64,000 nt of DNA from an uncultured Clostridia bacterium (GCA_944383465.1 CALWPQ010000003.1:11662-75661), one strand, 5' to 3'. Shown: positions 33,766 to 39,783, counted from the stretch's first letter. Numbers and translations are program-made. The notes: a model not told the origin generated them from the letters alone.

Positions 33766-34854
33766 ATGAAAATACTGAAAAACAGCATTTTAAGTATAGC
33801 ATTTTTCACTTTGGCTTTTTATTTAGCCGAAGTGCTCAGGCGGCATACGGGGGATGAAAATAATTCATCCCTCATATTCATAGTGGCGATAGTTTTAGTT
33901 GCACGCTTTACGGACGGATATTGGTATGGTATTGCGGCATCGGCTTTGAGCGTGTTTGTTGTAAACTATTCATTTATGTATCCTTTTTCTCATTTTACGA
34001 TGAGAGTGGAGGGTTATCCTGTAGTTGCAATAAGCTTTTTTGCGGCCTCGGTTACAGTATCTGCTGTTACTACGAGAATGCGCAAAGAGACGGCGCAGAA
34101 CGAAAGACTTTACAAAGAGCAGGCAAGGATAAAGCTGGAAGTCGAAAAAGGGATGATGAGGGAAAATCTTCTTAGAGCAATTTCACATGATTTGCGTACG
34201 CCTCTGACGGGCATAATCGGGGCGGGATCGGTAATATATGAAAATCATGATACGCTCACGGTAGAGGAAACGGAGCATCTGGCTGAGAATATAATAACAG
34301 ATGCACAGTGGCTTATAAATATGGTGGAAAATCTGCTCTCGGTAACGCGTACTACTGAATACGGAGCAAAGCTGAACAGGACAAATGAAATATTTGAGGA
34401 AATAGTAGCAATGCCAGTGCAAAAAGTTAAAGCGAGATATCCTGACTGTAAAATTTTCGTTGAAGTACCCGAAGAAATAATGCTCGTACCGATGGACGGG
34501 CTTCTGATACGTCAGGTGCTGCTTAATCTTCTTGAAAATGCGGTGCAGCATTCCGGTGACAGAGAAAATATAAGAGTGAAACTTTACAGAGACGGCGATA
34601 TGGCTGTATGCGAGGTAAGAGATCACGGCAAAGGTTTAAGCTGTGAAAATATAGACAAGTTGATAGAAGATGTCGTTATGAATAAGGATTCAGTATCGGA
34701 CGCGACTCGCGGAATGGGACTCGGACTTTCCGTGTGCAAGAGTATTATTAAAGCGCATGGCGGATTTTTGGAGGCTGAAAACGCAGAGGACGGCGGTGCG
34801 GTATTCAAATTTGGTCTTAAAATGGAGGAAATACCGGATTATGAGCAGCAGTAA
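33766..34854 (+). CDS. KdpD-like sensor histidine kinase lacking the N-terminal KdpD/Usp sensor half
   Basis: A membrane domain (DUF4118-like) followed by H-box AISHDLRTPLTGI and HATPase motifs GMGLGLSVCK. The start is uncertain (track GTG at 33706, ATG at 33766). Confidence 0.8.
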   Translation: MKILKNSILSIAFFTLAFYLAEVLRRHTGDENNSSLIFIVAIVLVARFTDGYWYGIAASALSVFVVNYSFMYPFSHFTMRVEGYPVVAISFFAASVTVSAVTTRMRKETAQNERLYKEQARIKLEVEKGMMRENLLRAISHDLRTPLTGIIGAGSVIYENHDTLTVEETEHLAENIITDAQWLINMVENLLSVTRTTEYGAKLNRTNEIFEEIVAMPVQKVKARYPDCKIFVEVPEEIMLVPMDGLLIRQVLLNLLENAVQHSGDRENIRVKLYRDGDMAVCEVRDHGKGLSCENIDKLIEDVVMNKDSVSDATRGMGLGLSVCKSIIKAHGGFLEAENAEDGGAVFKFGLKMEEIPDYEQQ

Positions 34855-35554
34855 TTATAACAAGAGAACTATACTCGTGATAGAGGATGATAAATCTATA
34901 AGCAGCTTTATATGTACAGCTCTTCAAAGCAGCGGTTATACAGTGCTGACTGCGGCAGACGGCGTGCAGGCAAGACAGATGTTTGCTTCGCACGGGCCAG
35001 AGCTGATACTTCTCGATCTTGGTCTTCCTGATATTGACGGGGTGGAAATAATAAAGGGGGTGCGCGAGTGGAGCAGTGTTCCGATAATAGTTGTTTCTGC
35101 ACGCGGTCGTGAAACAGACAAGGTAGAGGCACTCGATTTCGGAGCTGATGATTATATTACTAAGCCGTTTGGGATTTCGGAGCTGACGGCGCGCATCAGA
35201 ACGGCTCTGAGGCATGCGGACAGAGCCTCAGGTTCAGGCGCGCCGGCCGATGACATTGTAACTGTCGGAGACCTCACAATAGATATCGGAAAAAGACGCG
35301 TAACGCTCGGTGAAAACGAAGTCAGGTTTACAGCCATCGAATACAAGATTGTGTCACTGCTCGCAAAGAATGTGGGCAGAGTGCTCACATATGATTATAT
35401 TATCAAGGAAATCTGGGGGCCATACGCTTCGAGCGACAATCAGATACTGCGCGTAAATATGGCAAACATACGGCGAAAACTCGAGGAAAACCCCGCCGAG
35501 CCGCGCTATATAGTGACGGAGCTTGGCGTTGGATACAGAATGATGGAGAAATAG
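34841..35554 (+). CDS. kdpE: KdpE-like OmpR-family response regulator
   Basis: ILVIEDDKSI...LILLDLGLPDIDG...IIVVSARGRETDKVEALDFGADDYITKPFG and winged helix LTAIEYKIVSLL...GVGYRM. The ATG at 34841 overlaps the kinase stop. Confidence 0.85.
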   Translation: MSSSNYNKRTILVIEDDKSISSFICTALQSSGYTVLTAADGVQARQMFASHGPELILLDLGLPDIDGVEIIKGVREWSSVPIIVVSARGRETDKVEALDFGADDYITKPFGISELTARIRTALRHADRASGSGAPADDIVTVGDLTIDIGKRRVTLGENEVRFTAIEYKIVSLLAKNVGRVLTYDYIIKEIWGPYASSDNQILRVNMANIRRKLEENPAEPRYIVTELGVGYRMMEK

Positions 35555-35681: not shown

Positions 35682-35713
35682 TTGGGGCACCTGCAATAGA
35701 GCAGGTGCCCCAA
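35682..35713. terminator. 13-bp perfect hairpin at the left edge of the islet
   Basis: TTGGGGCACCTGC-AATAGA-GCAGGTGCCCCAA. T-rich sequence follows on both strands, so it could terminate kdpE or a former leftward islet transcript. Confidence 0.5.
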
Positions 35714-35784
35714 GCGTGTTTTATGGGACAGATGCGACAGAGTAAATTGTGGCGAAAGCTAATATATTTATAGAGGACACTATT

Positions 35785-36010
35785 ATGAAATCATTATTTG
35801 AACAAATGAGTGACACGTACCGCAAAGAAAACGGTTATCTTGCCGTCATTGACAAACAAGTAGAGGATATGTTTCTTCTGCTTGTAAAAAATATCAGAAA
35901 GTGATGGTATCAACGAACAATTTAAAACGGGAACTCAAATGGAATGGGTTGCTCGGATAAATAACATCCGCAGCAGGGTCATAGAAATTGTAAACATCAA
36001 ATCGTATACT
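35785..36010 (+). pseudogene. tnpV: TnpV-like (Tn4451-family accessory protein) remnant with internal deletion and frameshift
   Basis: MKSLFEQMSDTYRKENGYL...IDKQVEDMF runs to a stop at 35902. The +1 frame then continues ...INEQFKTGTQMEWVARINNIRSRVIEIVN. This matches the remembered TnpV consensus (MKSLFEQMGGTY...EQLKAENQMEWV.RMNNIR), but the central roughly 45 aa are missing. Confidence 0.7.
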
Positions 36011-36021
36011 GACTTATTTTA

Positions 36022-36030
36022 TGATATAAT
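36022..36030 (+). promoter_or_regulatory. Extended -10 promoter (TGaTATAAT) inside the islet, reading toward the helicase gene
   Basis: TG at 36022-36023 and TATAAT at 36025-36030. It lies about 200 nt upstream of the helicase ATG. Confidence 0.4.
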
Positions 36031-36097
36031 GAAATAAAAATAACTTACCATTTTAGATTTGTGAATCCTTTAGCGTAAGCTGATGTGTAGGTTTAAA

Positions 36098-36185
36098 ATG
36101 GATAAAGAGCAAAAATATGCGTGCGCAAAATGGACAGACAATGGAAATTCCAATTAGATGAAGTGAATAACTGGATTAAATCCTG
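36098..36185 (+). pseudogene. Excisionase-type (HTH_17/Xis-like) DNA-binding gene remnant
   Basis: MDKEQKY... runs into a stop. A shifted frame then ends ...KMDRQWKFQLDEVNNWIKS*, the typical C-terminal tail of excisionase-family HTH proteins. The HTH core is absent. Confidence 0.5.
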
Positions 36186-36202
36186 AGCTTCCGCTGACTA
36201 AT
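36186..36202 (+). repeat. Left copy of the direct repeat bracketing the helicase ORF (AGCTT-CC-GCTGACTAAT)
   Basis: The 11-nt exact core CGCTGACTAAT (36192-36202) recurs at 39552-39562, and both copies are preceded by AGCTT. Confidence 0.7.
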
Positions 36203-36227
36203 ATTATTTTAAAAGAAAGGCATACAT

Positions 36228-39200
36228 ATGGTATTGTTTTCAAAACTCTTTAAAAAGAAAGATTCGGTAGCGAAGATTGTCACGAACAATATGTCATTTG
36301 AGAGTCCTGAGTGTCAAAGTTTGTGGGACTTAAAGGTTTATATGGATGCCATATTGTCACAAAATCGCTATATTGCAAAAAGTGAATATCGTACAAAGTT
36401 GCTTGACGGAAAGAAAACGGTTGAGTATTTTGGCGTGCTTCAAAACAGTAGATTGTTAGATGCTTTCTGCAAAAATAACGGTCTTTCACTCTTTGGTGTC
36501 GAAGAAACATTAAAAACATACATAAACTTTGAAACACTTGTTGACGAGCATAATGAGTCTTTTATTCAGCGTGAGATGACTGAGGAACAACATTATTTAG
36601 ATAATATACTCCGTGAAGTTGATCCACAAATAAAATTGGACGAAGATCAACGTCGTGTTATTCTGACAGATGAAGACTATTGCCTTGTTATTGCCGGTGC
36701 CGGTGCAGGCAAAACCACTACTGTTGCGGCAAAAGTTAAATATTTAGTCGAGAAAAAAGGAATTGAGCCTTCTCAAATTCTTGTTTTGTCTTTTACGAAT
36801 AAGGCTGTTCAAGAACTTCGTGATAAACTTAATAGAGATTTAGCAATAGATTGTCCTATTGCCACATTTCATTCAACCGGCAATGCTATATTGAGAAAGC
36901 AGTCGCCGGAAAAGCTCAATATTGTTGACTCTTCAAAACTATATTTTGTTTTGCAGGATTATTTCAAAAGTTCTATATTGAAGAATGAAAGCCTTGTAAA
37001 CAACTTGATTCTGTTTTTTGCTTCGTACTTTGATGCTCCGTATGAGGGGGAAGAGCTTAATAGTTTCTTCAATAAAATCGCAAAATCGAATTTTACCACA
37101 ATGCGAAGTGACCTCAACGAGTTTAAACAACAAGTTATTGATATTCGTACAAAAAAATCAATTACAATTCAAAGTGAGGTAATGCGTTCCCGTCAAGAGG
37201 TGGAAATTGCAAATTTCTTGTATTTAAATAATATCGACTATGAATATGAGCCGATTTATAAATATGATATCCTCTTTTCAAAAAAGCCATATACTCCCGA
37301 CTTTATTATCCGGCAGGGTGATAAGGTTGCCTATATTGAACATTTTGGTATTACGCAAGACGGTAAAAACGACCGTTTTAGTTATGATCAGCTTGAAGCA
37401 TACAAAAAGGCTATAAATGATAAAATCAATCTGCACAGGAAACACGGTACAAAACTCATCTATACCTTTTCGCAGTATTCTGACCGAAGAACTCTTATAG
37501 AGCATTTACAGGAAGAATTAGAGAATAACGGTTTTGAGTTACATCATCGATCAAATAAAGAGGTGATGGAAAAACTCGTATCTACAGAAGAAAATCGTTA
37601 TATAAAAAAACTTGTCAACCTGATTTGCCGCTTTATTACAAACTTCAAAACGAATGGTTTCACGACGGAGGAGTTTAGCCGCATGTACCATTCTACTCAA
37701 AATGTACGGACAAGACTATTCTTGGATATTTGTAACGATTGCTACTTGGAATATGAGCGTTATCTAAAGGAAAACAATGCCGTTGACTTTGAGGATATGA
37801 TAAATGAATCAGCACGGGTGCTCCGAGAAGTCAAGGAAATGAAAAAGAAACTTGATTTCAAGTATATTATCGTAGATGAGTATCAAGATATTTCCCGGCA
37901 AAGATTTGACTTAGTAACAGCCTTGTCGGAAGTGACCGACGCTAAGATAATTGCAGTCGGTGACGATTGGCAATCCATTTATGCGTTTAGTGGTTCCGAT
38001 ATAACACTCTTTACAAAATTTGAAGAAAAAATGGGATATGCAAAACTTTTAAAAATCGTAAAGACATATCGCAACTCACAAGAAGTAATTGATATTGCAG
38101 GAAACTTTATTCAGAAAAACGAGACACAGATTTCAAAAGAATTAAAATCCACAAAAAGCATCGTTGATCCTGTTATTATTTACACCTACGACGGTAGTCC
38201 CAAAAAACTAAATGCCGACAATAAAAGTGGTGCAAATTACGCTATTGCACACGCCGTAGAAGTCGCTCTTGAGCAAATTATTGAATTTAATAAACAAGAA
38301 GGTAAATCATCCGAAAATTCTTCTATTCTATTGCTCGGTAGATTTGGATTTGACGGCGATAAGTTAGAAAAATCGGGCTTGTTTGAATACATTAGTAGAG
38401 GAAGTAAACTCAAAAGCGTAAAATATCCAAAACTTAATATTACATTTATGACTGCCCACGCTTCAAAAGGTTTAGGATACGATAATGTTATAGTTGTCAA
38501 CGGTCGAAACGAAACATACGGATTCCCGTCCAAGATTGAAGACGATCCTGTTCTTGCTTTTGTCATCAAGGGAGATCGCTCTATTGATTATGCCGAAGAA
38601 CGACGCTTGTTTTATGTTGCAATGACAAGAACGAAAAATCGTGTTTATTTTATTGCGCCGGAACAAAATCCATCTGAATTTCTTCTGGAAATAAAGCGTG
38701 ACTATAAAAATGTTGTCCTTCGTGGAAATTGGAACGAGGAACCGCCGCAAGATAATATCGCAAAGAAAACTTGCCCTATATGCGGTTATCCTATGCAATT
38801 CCGTTATAAAAACGCTTATGGATTACGGTTGTTTATTTGCACTAACGAGCCGGAAGTCTGCGGTTTTATGACCAATGAATATAAAGCCGGAAAACTTTCC
38901 ATACTGAAATGCGATCAGTGCAGGGACGGATATCTTATTGTTAAACCAGGAAAAGAAAACGATTATTTTCTTGGATGCACTAATTATAAAAAAGATGGAA
39001 CTGGTTGCGGGCGTTTCATTACACCTAAATATTATTATGAAATGTTTAGCCTCGAACCGGATTCTGTACCGGAAAAAGAATCTACATATAAAAGAATTAA
39101 AGCACCGGCACAAATTCAGACTATAAAGGAACAACCGCAGTGCGAAGAAAACAAGAGTATAAAGAAAGCGACAGTTAAAGCGGTGATATTTGAAGGATCT

Positions 39201-39539
39201 GATTTAAACGATATTGTTTATACTGTTTTGCAATGCCTTTCTCACATCAGCGAAAAAAGGTATTATGGTATAAACATTTTAGCGGATGTGCTTCGTGGGG
39301 CAAATAGTAAGCGTATTGCAGATGCAGAATTGGACAAATTGCCGGAGTATGGAAAGTTGAAAAAAGTACATCGTTATGATTTAATCATAATTATAGAATG
39401 GTTAATCGAGAACCATTTTATATTAAAGACGAAACATCCTAAATACCCTGTACTTCATCCTACGTATGATGGTATGCATTATGCCGAAACTATAACATCG
39501 AGCAAACTTCAAAAACTTTTTGAAAGATTAAATTCTTAA
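36228..39539 (+). CDS. HelD (helicase IV)/UvrD-type SF1 helicase with inserted Vsr/PD-(D/E)XK-like module, two topoisomerase-type Zn ribbons and C-terminal RecQ-type winged helix
   Basis: - HelD-like N-terminus: HNESFIQREM...YLDNI.
- Helicase motifs: Walker A AGAGAGKTT (aa 156-164), DEYQD (aa 550-554), GDDWQSIY, TAHASKGLGYDNVIV, YVAMTRTKNRVY.
- Insert, aa about 315-375: RQEVEIANFLYLNNIDYEYE...YTPDFII...AYIEHFG.
- Zn ribbons: CPIC...CTNEPEVC and CDQC...CTNYKKDGTGC.
- C-terminus: YGINILADVLRGANSKRI...LIIIIEWLIENHFI. Confidence 0.85.
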   Translation: MVLFSKLFKKKDSVAKIVTNNMSFESPECQSLWDLKVYMDAILSQNRYIAKSEYRTKLLDGKKTVEYFGVLQNSRLLDAFCKNNGLSLFGVEETLKTYINFETLVDEHNESFIQREMTEEQHYLDNILREVDPQIKLDEDQRRVILTDEDYCLVIAGAGAGKTTTVAAKVKYLVEKKGIEPSQILVLSFTNKAVQELRDKLNRDLAIDCPIATFHSTGNAILRKQSPEKLNIVDSSKLYFVLQDYFKSSILKNESLVNNLILFFASYFDAPYEGEELNSFFNKIAKSNFTTMRSDLNEFKQQVIDIRTKKSITIQSEVMRSRQEVEIANFLYLNNIDYEYEPIYKYDILFSKKPYTPDFIIRQGDKVAYIEHFGITQDGKNDRFSYDQLEAYKKAINDKINLHRKHGTKLIYTFSQYSDRRTLIEHLQEELENNGFELHHRSNKEVMEKLVSTEENRYIKKLVNLICRFITNFKTNGFTTEEFSRMYHSTQNVRTRLFLDICNDCYLEYERYLKENNAVDFEDMINESARVLREVKEMKKKLDFKYIIVDEYQDISRQRFDLVTALSEVTDAKIIAVGDDWQSIYAFSGSDITLFTKFEEKMGYAKLLKIVKTYRNSQEVIDIAGNFIQKNETQISKELKSTKSIVDPVIIYTYDGSPKKLNADNKSGANYAIAHAVEVALEQIIEFNKQEGKSSENSSILLLGRFGFDGDKLEKSGLFEYISRGSKLKSVKYPKLNITFMTAHASKGLGYDNVIVVNGRNETYGFPSKIEDDPVLAFVIKGDRSIDYAEERRLFYVAMTRTKNRVYFIAPEQNPSEFLLEIKRDYKNVVLRGNWNEEPPQDNIAKKTCPICGYPMQFRYKNAYGLRLFICTNEPEVCGFMTNEYKAGKLSILKCDQCRDGYLIVKPGKENDYFLGCTNYKKDGTGCGRFITPKYYYEMFSLEPDSVPEKESTYKRIKAPAQIQTIKEQPQCEENKSIKKATVKAVIFEGSDLNDIVYTVLQCLSHISEKRYYGINILADVLRGANSKRIADAELDKLPEYGKLKKVHRYDLIIIIEWLIENHFILKTKHPKYPVLHPTYDGMHYAETITSSKLQKLFERLNS

Positions 39540-39540
39540 T

Positions 39541-39562
39541 AGCTTATGCTGCGCTGACTAAT
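39541..39562 (+). repeat. Right copy of the direct repeat bracketing the helicase ORF (AGCTT-ATGCTGC-GCTGACTAAT)
   Basis: It starts 2 nt after the helicase stop codon and shares AGCTT plus the exact 11-mer CGCTGACTAAT with 36186-36202. Confidence 0.7.
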
Positions 39563-39721
39563 TATAAAGCAGCCGTTTCGGAATTTGTGCGGCAGTTATA
39601 CAAAGATAAAATGCCAAAACCGCAATCGATAAAAGAGTTTTGGAAACTACTTAAAGCACTTTATAAAGTCCATAAAAGATTTAAGACGTATGCTAAGTAT
39701 GTATCGTCAGCACTTAATCTG

Positions 39722-39758
39722 CAAAGAGAAAGCCCGCTCCGACAGCGGTCGGGCGGGC
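39722..39758 (-). terminator. Intrinsic terminator of the minus-strand SNF transporter gene
   Basis: GC-rich hairpin GCCCGC(T)CCGAC-AGCG-GTCGGGCGGGC, followed on the minus strand by TTTCTCTTT. Confidence 0.65.
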
Positions 39759-39783
39759 GCAAGGACGAAAAAACGGTTAATAT

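Follow-up and report, generated by a model that had tools for sequence, protein, structure and literature searches.

A widespread, mobile helicase gene with a nuclease fold at its 1B position, found in an uncultured Clostridia bacterium: a candidate for DNA defence

What is the function of a large, solitary helicase gene that lies in an AT-rich islet among the housekeeping genes of an uncultured Clostridia bacterium? The gene is encoded on a stretch of 64,000 nucleotides (GCA_944383465.1 CALWPQ010000003.1:11662-75661; this whole stretch is referred to as the window and its own numbering is used), where it occupies positions 36228..39539 of the plus strand as a complete and intact open reading frame (ORF) of 1103 amino acids (aa) with an ATG start. 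A preliminary description made from the sequence alone had regarded the product as an orphan protein of four parts, namely a HelD/UvrD-type helicase, a Vsr-like nuclease insert, two topoisomerase-type zinc ribbons and a RecQ-type winged helix, and had proposed it as a possible single-gene defence protein. In the current analysis the gene is recognised as a member of an uncharacterised, widespread and mobile nuclease-helicase family. The molecular description of the protein given below is one that we hold with good confidence. The further proposal, that it is a self-contained, ATP-driven nuclease-helicase which destroys invading DNA (phage, plasmid or conjugative element), draws its defence role from the genomic context and is in our judgement evenly balanced. 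The domain organisation is as follows.

36228..39539, plus strand: helicase-IV-like helicase of superfamily 1A (SF1A) with an inserted nuclease, two zinc ribbons and an RQC winged helix; complete ORF.
36306..36602, plus strand: N-terminal all-helical domain, aa 27-125, with a predicted local distance difference test score (pLDDT) above 90; its consensus across the family is mostly x.
36633..36926, plus strand: first part of domain 1A, aa 136-233, with Walker A GAGAGKT (K162), motif Ia and TFHS.
36927..37604, plus strand: region at the 1B position, aa 234-459, standing in for 56 residues of E. coli helicase IV (HelD 294-349).
37155..37532, plus strand: PD-(D/E)xK nuclease core, aa ~310-435, recognised from conserved residues, structure model and profile match.
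37605..38717, plus strand: remaining helicase core, aa 460-830, with the end of 1B, motif II DEYQD (550-554), motif III GDDWQSIY (578-585), and 2A with TAHASKG (742-748) and YVAMTRT (796-802).
38763..38867, plus strand: zinc ribbon 1, C849/C852/C871/C878; weak Zn_ribbon_bTOP1 match (0.055), beta-strands in the model.
38901..39017, plus strand: zinc ribbon 2 of the topoisomerase-IA C4 type, C895/C898/C917/C927, with FLGCTNY; PF01396 is below threshold here.
39180..39536, plus strand: RQC-type winged helix, aa ~985-1103, following a disordered linker (aa 946-978); pLDDT 81-95.

The motor belongs to the SF1A helicases of the UvrD/Rep/PcrA type, as seen from its Walker A and DExQD motifs, motifs III-VI, Pfam models and the RecA-like fold of domains 1A and 2A. 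The UvrD-helicase model of Pfam matches with an E-value of 2e-52, and AAA_19, UvrD_C and UvrD_C_2 are also above threshold. All the helicase motifs that the preliminary description had read from the translation are in place, and they are invariant or nearly so in 48 relatives of 29-67% identity (G157-K162, D550-E551-x-Q553-D554, G578-D579-D580-W581-Q582, H744/K747/G748 and Y796-V797/T800-R801). Among proteins of solved structure the closest sequence match of the core is Deinococcus UvrD (4e-39). The resemblance to E. coli helicase IV that had been noted earlier is borne out, since helicase IV is the best NCBIfam model (NF008276, 301 bits) and the core shares 30-32% identity with E. coli HelD over aa 100-233 and 460-819 (E 3e-43). 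As in helicase IV, a full-size 2B domain is absent. The full-length AlphaFold model has a mean pLDDT of 82.1 and a predicted template modelling score (pTM) of 0.66, and its nearest structures are PcrA, UvrD and Rep (E about 1e-19), followed by AddA, RecB and AdnB. The N-terminus had been called HelD-like, a likeness that does not extend to most of it: the alignment with E. coli helicase IV (its residues 165-200) is limited to aa ~100-135, and residues 1-100 have no match in Pfam, PADLOC or any family.

The region at the 1B position distinguishes this protein from the helicases named above. An insert of about 340 aa had been proposed, which proves to be an overestimate; the net insertion amounts to ~170 aa in comparison with E. 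coli helicase IV (aa 234-459 for HelD 294-349) and to ~200 aa in comparison with UvrD (225-470 for ~45 residues), and the rest is normal 1B region. The linkers around the insert (aa 266-298 and ~445-460) are of low confidence in the model, which suggests that the insert is a tethered domain. The motif string on which the earlier nuclease proposal was based (YTPDFII...AYIEHFG) is found at aa 321-374 and contains an acidic triad, E324/D358/E371. In the 48 relatives E317, S321, E324, P357, D358, F359, E371 and K399 are invariant, and H372 (at least 90%), G374 and H403 are nearly so. S321, E324, the PDF motif and E371 are also kept in seven plasmid homologues of the 26-36% identity class from Proteobacteria, Bacteroidota, Cyanobacteria and Bacilli.

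A profile of 44 sequences built on aa 295-445 matches the structures of T7 endonuclease I (2pfj, 7.5e-4; 1m0d, 9e-4), and the alignment places E324 on E20, D358 of YTPDF on D55 and E371 on E65. The isolated insert is modelled with a pLDDT of 95.3 and a pTM of 0.88 as a helix-strand-strand-strand-helix-strand (alpha-beta-beta-beta-alpha-beta) arrangement; the fold is thus that of a nuclease retaining the acidic active-site residues and not a non-nuclease fold, the outcome that would have spoken against the earlier proposal. A Foldseek comparison with the PDB returns PD-(D/E)xK proteins exclusively as top neighbours, namely the Bax1 nuclease domain, Hjc, R2 endonuclease, bunyavirus cap-snatching endonuclease, RecU and McrC, the fold class being right and the scores modest (E about 0.01, template modelling score (TM) 0.33-0.47). 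Clearer matches are obtained with predicted viral structures (E 1e-5, TM 0.5-0.6, root-mean-square deviation 3-4 A), which include DUF2726 proteins, 'restriction enzymes' and Vsr-type group I intron homing endonucleases. The insert also matches the PADLOC candidates PDC-S68 (4.6e-11, at the C-terminal end of a model of 1221 positions) and PDC-S69, as well as PHROG 9019 'Holliday junction resolvase' (7e-7) and phrog_945 'endonuclease'.

The fold and the conserved acidic residues (E...PD...E) therefore place the insert among the PD-(D/E)xK nucleases, the canonical lysine of this class being absent. The profile points to a distant homologue of T7 endonuclease I that is not a member of the Phage endonuclease I family proper (PF05367), for which the score is 14.2 bits (E 0.034) against a gathering score of 29.1 and which only one of the 48 relatives matches at 5.6e-4. 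The Vsr-like character proposed earlier holds at the level of fold and clan, in the structures and in the T7 endonuclease I profile, but not at the level of sequence models: none of the Pfam models for Vsr, DUF559, MTES_1575 and DUF2726 is found on the isolated insert even at E<=10, or among the 48 relatives.

Both zinc ribbons of the earlier proposal are present and all their eight cysteines are at least 90% conserved in the 48 diverse relatives, but FLGCTNY, which had been assigned to the pair, occurs in the second ribbon only. The Zn_ribbon_Top1 family (PF01396) scores 21.8 bits with the whole protein and 29 bits with the fragment against a cut-off of 32, and is significant in 33 of the 48 relatives, with a best value of 4e-23; in the Pfam scan suggested earlier it thus stays below the cut-off, and UvrD-helicase, UvrD_C and RQC are above their thresholds. 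The winged helix is confirmed by RQC (PF09382), which scores 48.1 bits against a cut-off of 23 over aa 991-1082, and the recQ and RQC_minor_1 models agree. This tail is 27-31% identical to the RQC domains of RecQ proteins that adjoin the helicase in other loci. The winged helix is not a family-wide feature, however. The C-terminal tail is variable among the 48 diverse members, with RQC in 6, HRDC in 2, RNase_T in 1 and others elsewhere, whereas 72 of 80 close Clostridial relatives have the RQC tail. Judged from these counts the RQC tail is specific to a Clostridial subfamily, and the conserved architecture consists of three parts followed by a variable C-terminal module.

The gene is not an orphan. 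At least 120 protein clusters (at the level of 90% identity) are 76-100% identical to it over the full length with the same Pfam content, and the named relatives carry the label 'UvrD-helicase domain-containing protein'. An exhaustive search with the insert has identified 1,611 representative clusters (at the level of 50% identity) with E<=1e-3, and 715 of them reach E<=1e-10. Almost all of them match at residues ~220-470 of proteins of 700-1300 aa that are helicases. The insert-bearing proteins have a Walker A to DExQD spacing of ~390 residues and a CxxC pair ~45 residues apart, and both features are conserved. At least 561 species-representative genomes carry a relative of the insert; the best 80 of these are almost all from gut or rumen Clostridia, with a few cultured strains among them. 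Cultured organisms with a homologue include Robinsoniella peoriensis, Eubacterium oxidoreducens DSM 3217 and Anaerocolumna aminovalerica DSM 1283. The family as a whole spans Firmicutes, Proteobacteria, Bacteroidota and Cyanobacteria, and many members are on plasmids. The distant representatives P0217, P0148 and P0236 lie on contigs of 3-5 kb that hold no neighbours. Five matches are to contigs of 4-8 kb deposited as unannotated faecal 'Bacteriophage sp.', one of them containing essentially only this gene; they have not been taken as evidence of phage carriage.

The gene has been horizontally acquired and is mobile. The guanine-plus-cytosine content (GC) of the islet is 0.357 against 0.446 for the window, with 0.34-0.38 across 36-40 kb and ~0.45 on either side, and the GC at third codon positions is 0.32 in the helicase gene against 0.41-0.49 in the adjoining genes, in agreement with the AT-rich islet noticed earlier. 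Loci encoding proteins of 90-91% identity in other species occupy unrelated chromosomal sites, and DNA similarity to them spans only from 36075 to the stop codon, that is the gene and about 150 bp. Among the 79 species loci with callable neighbours 78 distinct contexts are seen, so that the survey of homologues finds no conserved core-genome context, and mobile and defence genes lie near. The islet contains the following features.

35715..39783, no strand: low-GC islet between the probable terminator of a KdpDE-like operon and a convergent SNF transporter gene.
36057..36198, plus strand: frameshifted remnant of an HTH_17 (excisionase/AlpA-type) gene, found by tblastn in two frames (4e-7); DNA homology to the related loci L002 and L010 starts at 36075.
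36192..36202, plus strand: upstream copy of an 11-bp direct repeat, CGCTGACTAAT, whose bases close the HTH_17 gene at its 3' end in related loci.
39552..39562, plus strand: downstream copy of the repeat CGCTGACTAAT, 13 nt past the stop codon.

The HTH_17 gene, represented in the window by this two-frame pseudogene, immediately precedes the helicase gene in the same orientation at no fewer than 14 of 80 loci. An intact form of 60-62 aa adjoins the helicase in several lineages, upstream in L002:9792-9974 and L004:8191-8373 and downstream in L005:13353-13541. The exact 11-bp repeat CGCTGACTAAT flanks the ORF on both sides, a length that is reached in 4 of 5000 shuffles. As an insertion footprint it has been rejected as the main interpretation, the upstream copy being the conserved 3' end of HTH_17 and the repeat being absent from the downstream flanks of related loci; what lies downstream here may instead be left over from a second HTH_17 copy. 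A short ORF at 35785-35904 of the plus strand, MKSLFEQMSDTYRKENGYL..., shares 13 of 22 positions with the N-terminal end of a TnpV protein that accompanies homologues at other sites (L031). This similarity is not significant by Pfam or tblastn, the ORF being too short, and it may represent a further mobile-element relic of the islet.

The flanks are made up of ordinary Firmicute genes, with cdaA, a YbbR-domain gene, glmM, glmS and a KdpD/KdpE-like two-component pair upstream, and two SNF-family transporters, a LysR regulator and an amino-acid carrier downstream. A perfect hairpin with a 13-bp stem and a T-rich tail at 35682-35713 of the plus strand, 3' of the KdpE-like gene, is probably where the KdpDE-like operon terminates, and the low-GC islet has its left edge here. 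No tRNA genes that could serve as integration targets are found in the window. The helicase is a standalone gene here, though its homologues are numerous. The window is 99.4-99.6% identical to the contig CAYCOB010000049.1 of an NCBI metagenome-assembled genome, and the helicase protein is identical in both. The KdpE-like response-regulator gene (34757-35554 in the window, L001:8652-9327) differs by an indel, being one intact ORF in the window and two fragments (124 + 67 aa) in CAYCOB010000049.1.

In other genomes the gene has recurrent neighbours. The counts that follow are among ~80 related loci of the closest relatives. The commonest neighbour is a RecQ or a small protein resembling a RecQ extension, and the following genes have been identified repeatedly.

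Directly downstream, same strand, gap of -36 to +19 nt, about 16 of 80 loci: protein of ~195 aa (for example L021:12376-12963, L017:7159-7743, L081:12391-12942).
Directly downstream, 4 loci: full RecQ with DEAD, Helicase_C, RecQ_Zn_bind, RQC and HRDC.
8 loci: HNH_4 protein of ~365 aa (Pfam 1.6e-10).
7 loci: CHC2 primase-finger fragment (Pfam 2.3e-19).
6 loci: MazG-like protein of 100 aa (recognised by eye only).
5 loci: type IV methyl-directed restriction enzyme, mREase_IV (PADLOC 3.6e-221).
5 loci: NUDIX (Pfam 1.5e-19).
5 loci: TnpV (Pfam 1.6e-44).
3 loci: GmrSD (Pfam 2.3e-42).
3 loci: PDC-S41 / Schlafen-type helicase (PADLOC 1e-186).

Integrase genes and a sigma-70 fragment are also among the neighbours. 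A gene of restriction or defence type, drawn from mREase_IV, GmrSD, PDC-S41 and HNH_4, lies within four genes of the helicase in 16 of the 79 loci, and 12 loci have a mobile-element gene. One lineage of 78% identity has the helicase between a Schlafen-type (SLFN) helicase and a Fic-GmrSD gene. The ~195-aa protein, the gene for which is absent from the window, matches nothing in Pfam, NCBIfam, PADLOC or PDB. Over its last ~100 residues, at the C-terminus, it is similar to the extension that follows HRDC in the RecQ proteins found at the same position, with E-values down to 4e-9. In several Lachnospiraceae loci (L062, L063, L072 and L069) the order is helicase, the 195-aa protein or RecQ, HNH_4 (~365 aa) and the MazG-like protein of 100 aa, often adjoined by mREase_IV, GmrSD or PDC-S41, and this gene order may be a multi-gene version of the system.

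Relatives occur on 114 plasmid records, 56 of which are mobilizable or conjugative, and the insert-bearing plasmid relatives are 26-36% identical to the protein. The enterobacterial 'plasmid' matches (E. coli, Klebsiella, Yersinia) have been set aside as ordinary helD without the insert. Seven plasmid contexts contain the following genes near the family member.

Paenisporosarcina plasmid: two DUF262 genes and GIY-YIG nucleases.
Acinetobacter plasmid: ThiF/multiubiquitin/UvrD cluster, DUF3800, IS5 and integrase.
Methylotuvimicrobium plasmid: toxin-antitoxin pair, recombinases and umuD.
Vibrio plasmid: two DUF262 genes, an AAA-ATPase and UvrD pair, and AlpA.
Hymenobacter plasmid: restriction endonuclease and HNH endonuclease.
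Rhizobium plasmid: Shedu SduA-domain gene and AbiEii system.
Anabaena plasmid: integrase.

Defence genes are thus seen in six of the seven, the set listed for Anabaena being the exception; the pattern is consistent and extends over five phyla. The plasmids of Vibrio and Hymenobacter have relaxase genes close to the family member, and those of Paenisporosarcina and Methylotuvimicrobium a UvrX or umuD gene. A second and larger gene with a UvrD-helicase domain (~1130 aa) is located a few kb from the family member in Acinetobacter (L013:3344-6736) and Rhizobium (L101:12766-16167). In Acinetobacter it is part of a cluster of sigma-70, hypothetical, UvrD, multiubiquitin, ThiF and DUF6527 genes, and the UvrD/multiubiquitin/ThiF cluster looks like a separate conflict system. 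Taken with the HTH_17, TnpV and CHC2 genes described above, these contexts strengthen the earlier suggestion of a mobile element with a defence role as regards mobility and defence neighbours, the defence function itself being short of proof.

Comparison with known systems shows that the protein shares parts with several of them. With E. coli helicase IV, its best-scoring named family, it has in common all the helicase motifs, the GDDWQxIY variant of motif III and the reduced 2B domain. It is not an equivalog of helicase IV, because its score of 301 bits falls short of the cut-off of 543 for NF008276 and because it carries the insertion. At the 1B position helicase IV is limited to 56 residues, against 226 here, and hence has no nuclease; it also lacks zinc ribbons and RQC, its N-terminal domain does not align with the ~100 N-terminal residues found here, and it is a chromosomal core gene of enterobacteria whereas this gene is mobile. 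HelD has an N-terminal secondary-channel arm and an unrelated clamp-arm at the 1B position, and helicase IV a putative 1B domain (PMC8655204). The protein is also distinct from the HelD of B. subtilis type that recycles RNA polymerase, having a nuclease fold at 1B and B. subtilis HelD as the 31st of its structural neighbours.

RecB, AddA and AdnB, which are structural neighbours of the model, likewise have a UvrD-like SF1A motor covalently joined to a PD-(D/E)xK nuclease. Their nuclease is of the RecB family and C-terminal, in contrast to the T7-endonuclease-I/DUF2726/Vsr-like domain present here inside 1B, and they need partners (RecC/RecD, AddB, AdnA), none of which was found in the window or the loci of close homologues. 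The AddAB and RecBCD models score 67-80 bits against NCBIfam cut-offs of 650-860. T7 endonuclease I is a domain-swapped dimer, whereas the insert is a single domain embedded in a helicase. DUF2726 is a DNase of restriction-endonuclease fold that occurs in defence fusions (PMC3710099). With RecQ the protein shares the C-terminal winged helix, which passes the Pfam RQC model, and some relatives have HRDC instead; it differs from RecQ in having an SF1 UvrD-like motor in place of the SF2 RecQ core, in the absence of the RecQ zinc-binding domain and in the restriction of RQC to those 6 of 48 diverse members.

The defence systems Gabija GajAB, Hhe, Nhi, Hna, DdmD and DruE also couple a helicase or translocase to a nuclease, and their genes are found in mobile or variable DNA close to those of other defence systems. 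The helicase core matches GajB models (1e-48), which reflects a generic similarity to UvrD. The protein is not Gabija because there is no adjacent GajA gene, no gene for a GajA-type OLD nuclease being found in the window or in the loci of close homologues. In the PADLOC scan proposed earlier the insert gives the two candidates mentioned above, but the 25 best matches of the whole protein are all GajB or DRT helicase models. When the N-terminus, the insert and the C-terminus are scanned apart, only PDC-S68, PDC-S69 and DpdF match in PADLOC-DB v2, so that these non-helicase parts give no support for Hhe, Nhi or another named system; DUF4011 and MTES_1575 are not found by Pfam. As described so far, the helicases of Hhe, Nhi, Hna and DdmD belong to different families.

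How might such a protein act? UvrD, PcrA and Rep track 3'->5', and a motor of the helicase-IV/UvrD type would be expected from its family to run in this direction on single-stranded DNA. In the same helicases domain 1B lies beside the junction of single strand and duplex, and a nuclease tethered there by flexible linkers would therefore cut the DNA being unwound or fed past it. The action would be analogous to that of RecB or AddA, with the nuclease within the motor instead of at its C-terminus. Ribbons of the topoisomerase-IA type have an affinity for single-stranded DNA, and RQC domains for duplex ends and for branch points. By analogy, the two ribbons may hold the single strand, and the Clostridial winged helix may recognise either the ends of duplexes or branched sites, among them forks, D-loops and junctions. 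The protein could thus load on ends, gaps or branched intermediates and then degrade the DNA, foreign replicating DNA being the likely target. We propose only tentatively, as something we think somewhat improbable in its full form, that the family is a widespread single-protein immune effector with a helicase-IV-type motor and an internal endonuclease-I/Vsr-like nuclease, in which swappable RecQ-style structure readers (RQC, HRDC or the ~195-aa partner acting in trans) detect replication or recombination intermediates of the invader for degradation and the excisionase-type HTH protein is a regulator.

Several observations weigh against the proposed destruction of invading DNA. The canonical catalytic lysine is absent: the ExxG element that had been counted as part of the nuclease signature, in addition to the invariant triad, supplies none, since it reads E371-H372-F373 with F373 aligned to K67 of T7 endonuclease I, and K399 and H403, the candidate substitutes, are not always kept in the most distant (plasmid) relatives. 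The insert as a single sequence has no significant match in Pfam, NCBIfam or PDB sequence models at curated thresholds, PADLOC recognises the whole protein only via generic UvrD-type models, and no description of this family or architecture was found in the literature. No defence gene adjoins the helicase within the 64-kb window, the flanks being cdaA-glmM-glmS, the KdpDE-like pair and transporters. The counts of defence neighbours come without a background rate, so that enrichment is not statistically established, and the contexts with RecQ directly downstream (4 loci) or with UvrX or umuD nearby (two plasmids) have a flavour of repair. The missing lysine would be readily understood if the insert were a catalytically dead nuclease fold, used for DNA binding or structure sensing only, and the protein a pure helicase or translocase. 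The position of the lysine is Phe or Tyr across the family, and in the helicase IV/HelD lineage modules without catalytic function, for example the HelD clamp-arm, are known at the 1B position (PMC8655204). This explanation has to face the invariance of the metal-binding acidic residues E324, D358 and E371, and of S321 and P357/F359, down to 26-29% identity and across five phyla, with Proteobacteria, Bacteroidota, Cyanobacteria and Bacilli among the groups covered; such invariance is difficult to account for without catalysis. Moreover, several active PD-(D/E)xK families, Vsr and DUF559-like ones among them, do without the canonical lysine, and we regard a dead nuclease as improbable.

The repair-flavoured contexts would find their place if the protein were an enzyme of DNA repair or of the replication fork, an analogue of helicase IV or the RecQ pathway that unwinds and cleaves stalled forks, D-loops and junctions of the cell's own DNA. 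Helicase IV is indeed the closest named family, RQC and HRDC are typical of RecQ, a full RecQ or the RecQ-extension-like small protein is directly downstream in about 20 of 80 loci, and the nuclease resembles junction resolvases (T7 endonuclease I, Hjc, RecU, PHROG 9019). Housekeeping repair genes are, however, normally vertical and syntenic, whereas this gene is sporadic, is found in a new context at almost every locus, is of foreign composition and has variable C-terminal modules. The RecQ-linked loci carry HNH_4, MazG-like, mREase_IV or GmrSD genes and therefore look like defence islands, and a repair role appears to us quite unlikely. The variability of the C-terminal module (RQC, HRDC, RNase_T and others) is counted in favour of defence, because many immune proteins have variable modules there. 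A mobile element may also have uses of its own for the protein, which could act on rolling-circle or recombination intermediates while the element is excised, transferred or established, or serve in competition with rival elements, without protecting the host from phages. The HTH_17 gene directly upstream, the TnpV, CHC2, sigma-70 and integrase neighbours, the mobilizable or conjugative plasmids and the relaxase genes on two of them would all fit such an accessory function. Yet the unit of shared DNA is the gene and about 150 bp only, and most loci, the window included, have no intact integrase, relaxase or replication gene near an ORF that is intact and highly conserved; elements needing a replicative helicase normally do without a nuclease of invariant active site combined with modules that bind ends and branches. 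Defence systems are typical cargo of mobile elements, so that the element context does not discriminate, and we consider a purely element-serving function unlikely, if less so than a repair role.

Helicase-nuclease defence proteins are well known as a class and this copy stands alone among housekeeping genes, which makes the gene a good candidate for DNA defence and not a surprise. If the defence role is true, a function and a name could be given to a large family that now bears no label but 'UvrD-helicase domain-containing protein', and the tools for defence annotation would gain a model for a nuclease domain that lies outside the coverage of Pfam. An SF1A helicase with a nuclease inside its 1B position would be a different solution from that of RecB and AddA, with their C-terminal nuclease, or from the two-protein Gabija, and the protein would be a compact model for the coupling of unwinding and cutting. 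The 1B position looks like an evolutionary slot for new functions, being plain in helicase IV, occupied by a clamp-arm in HelD and by a nuclease in this family.

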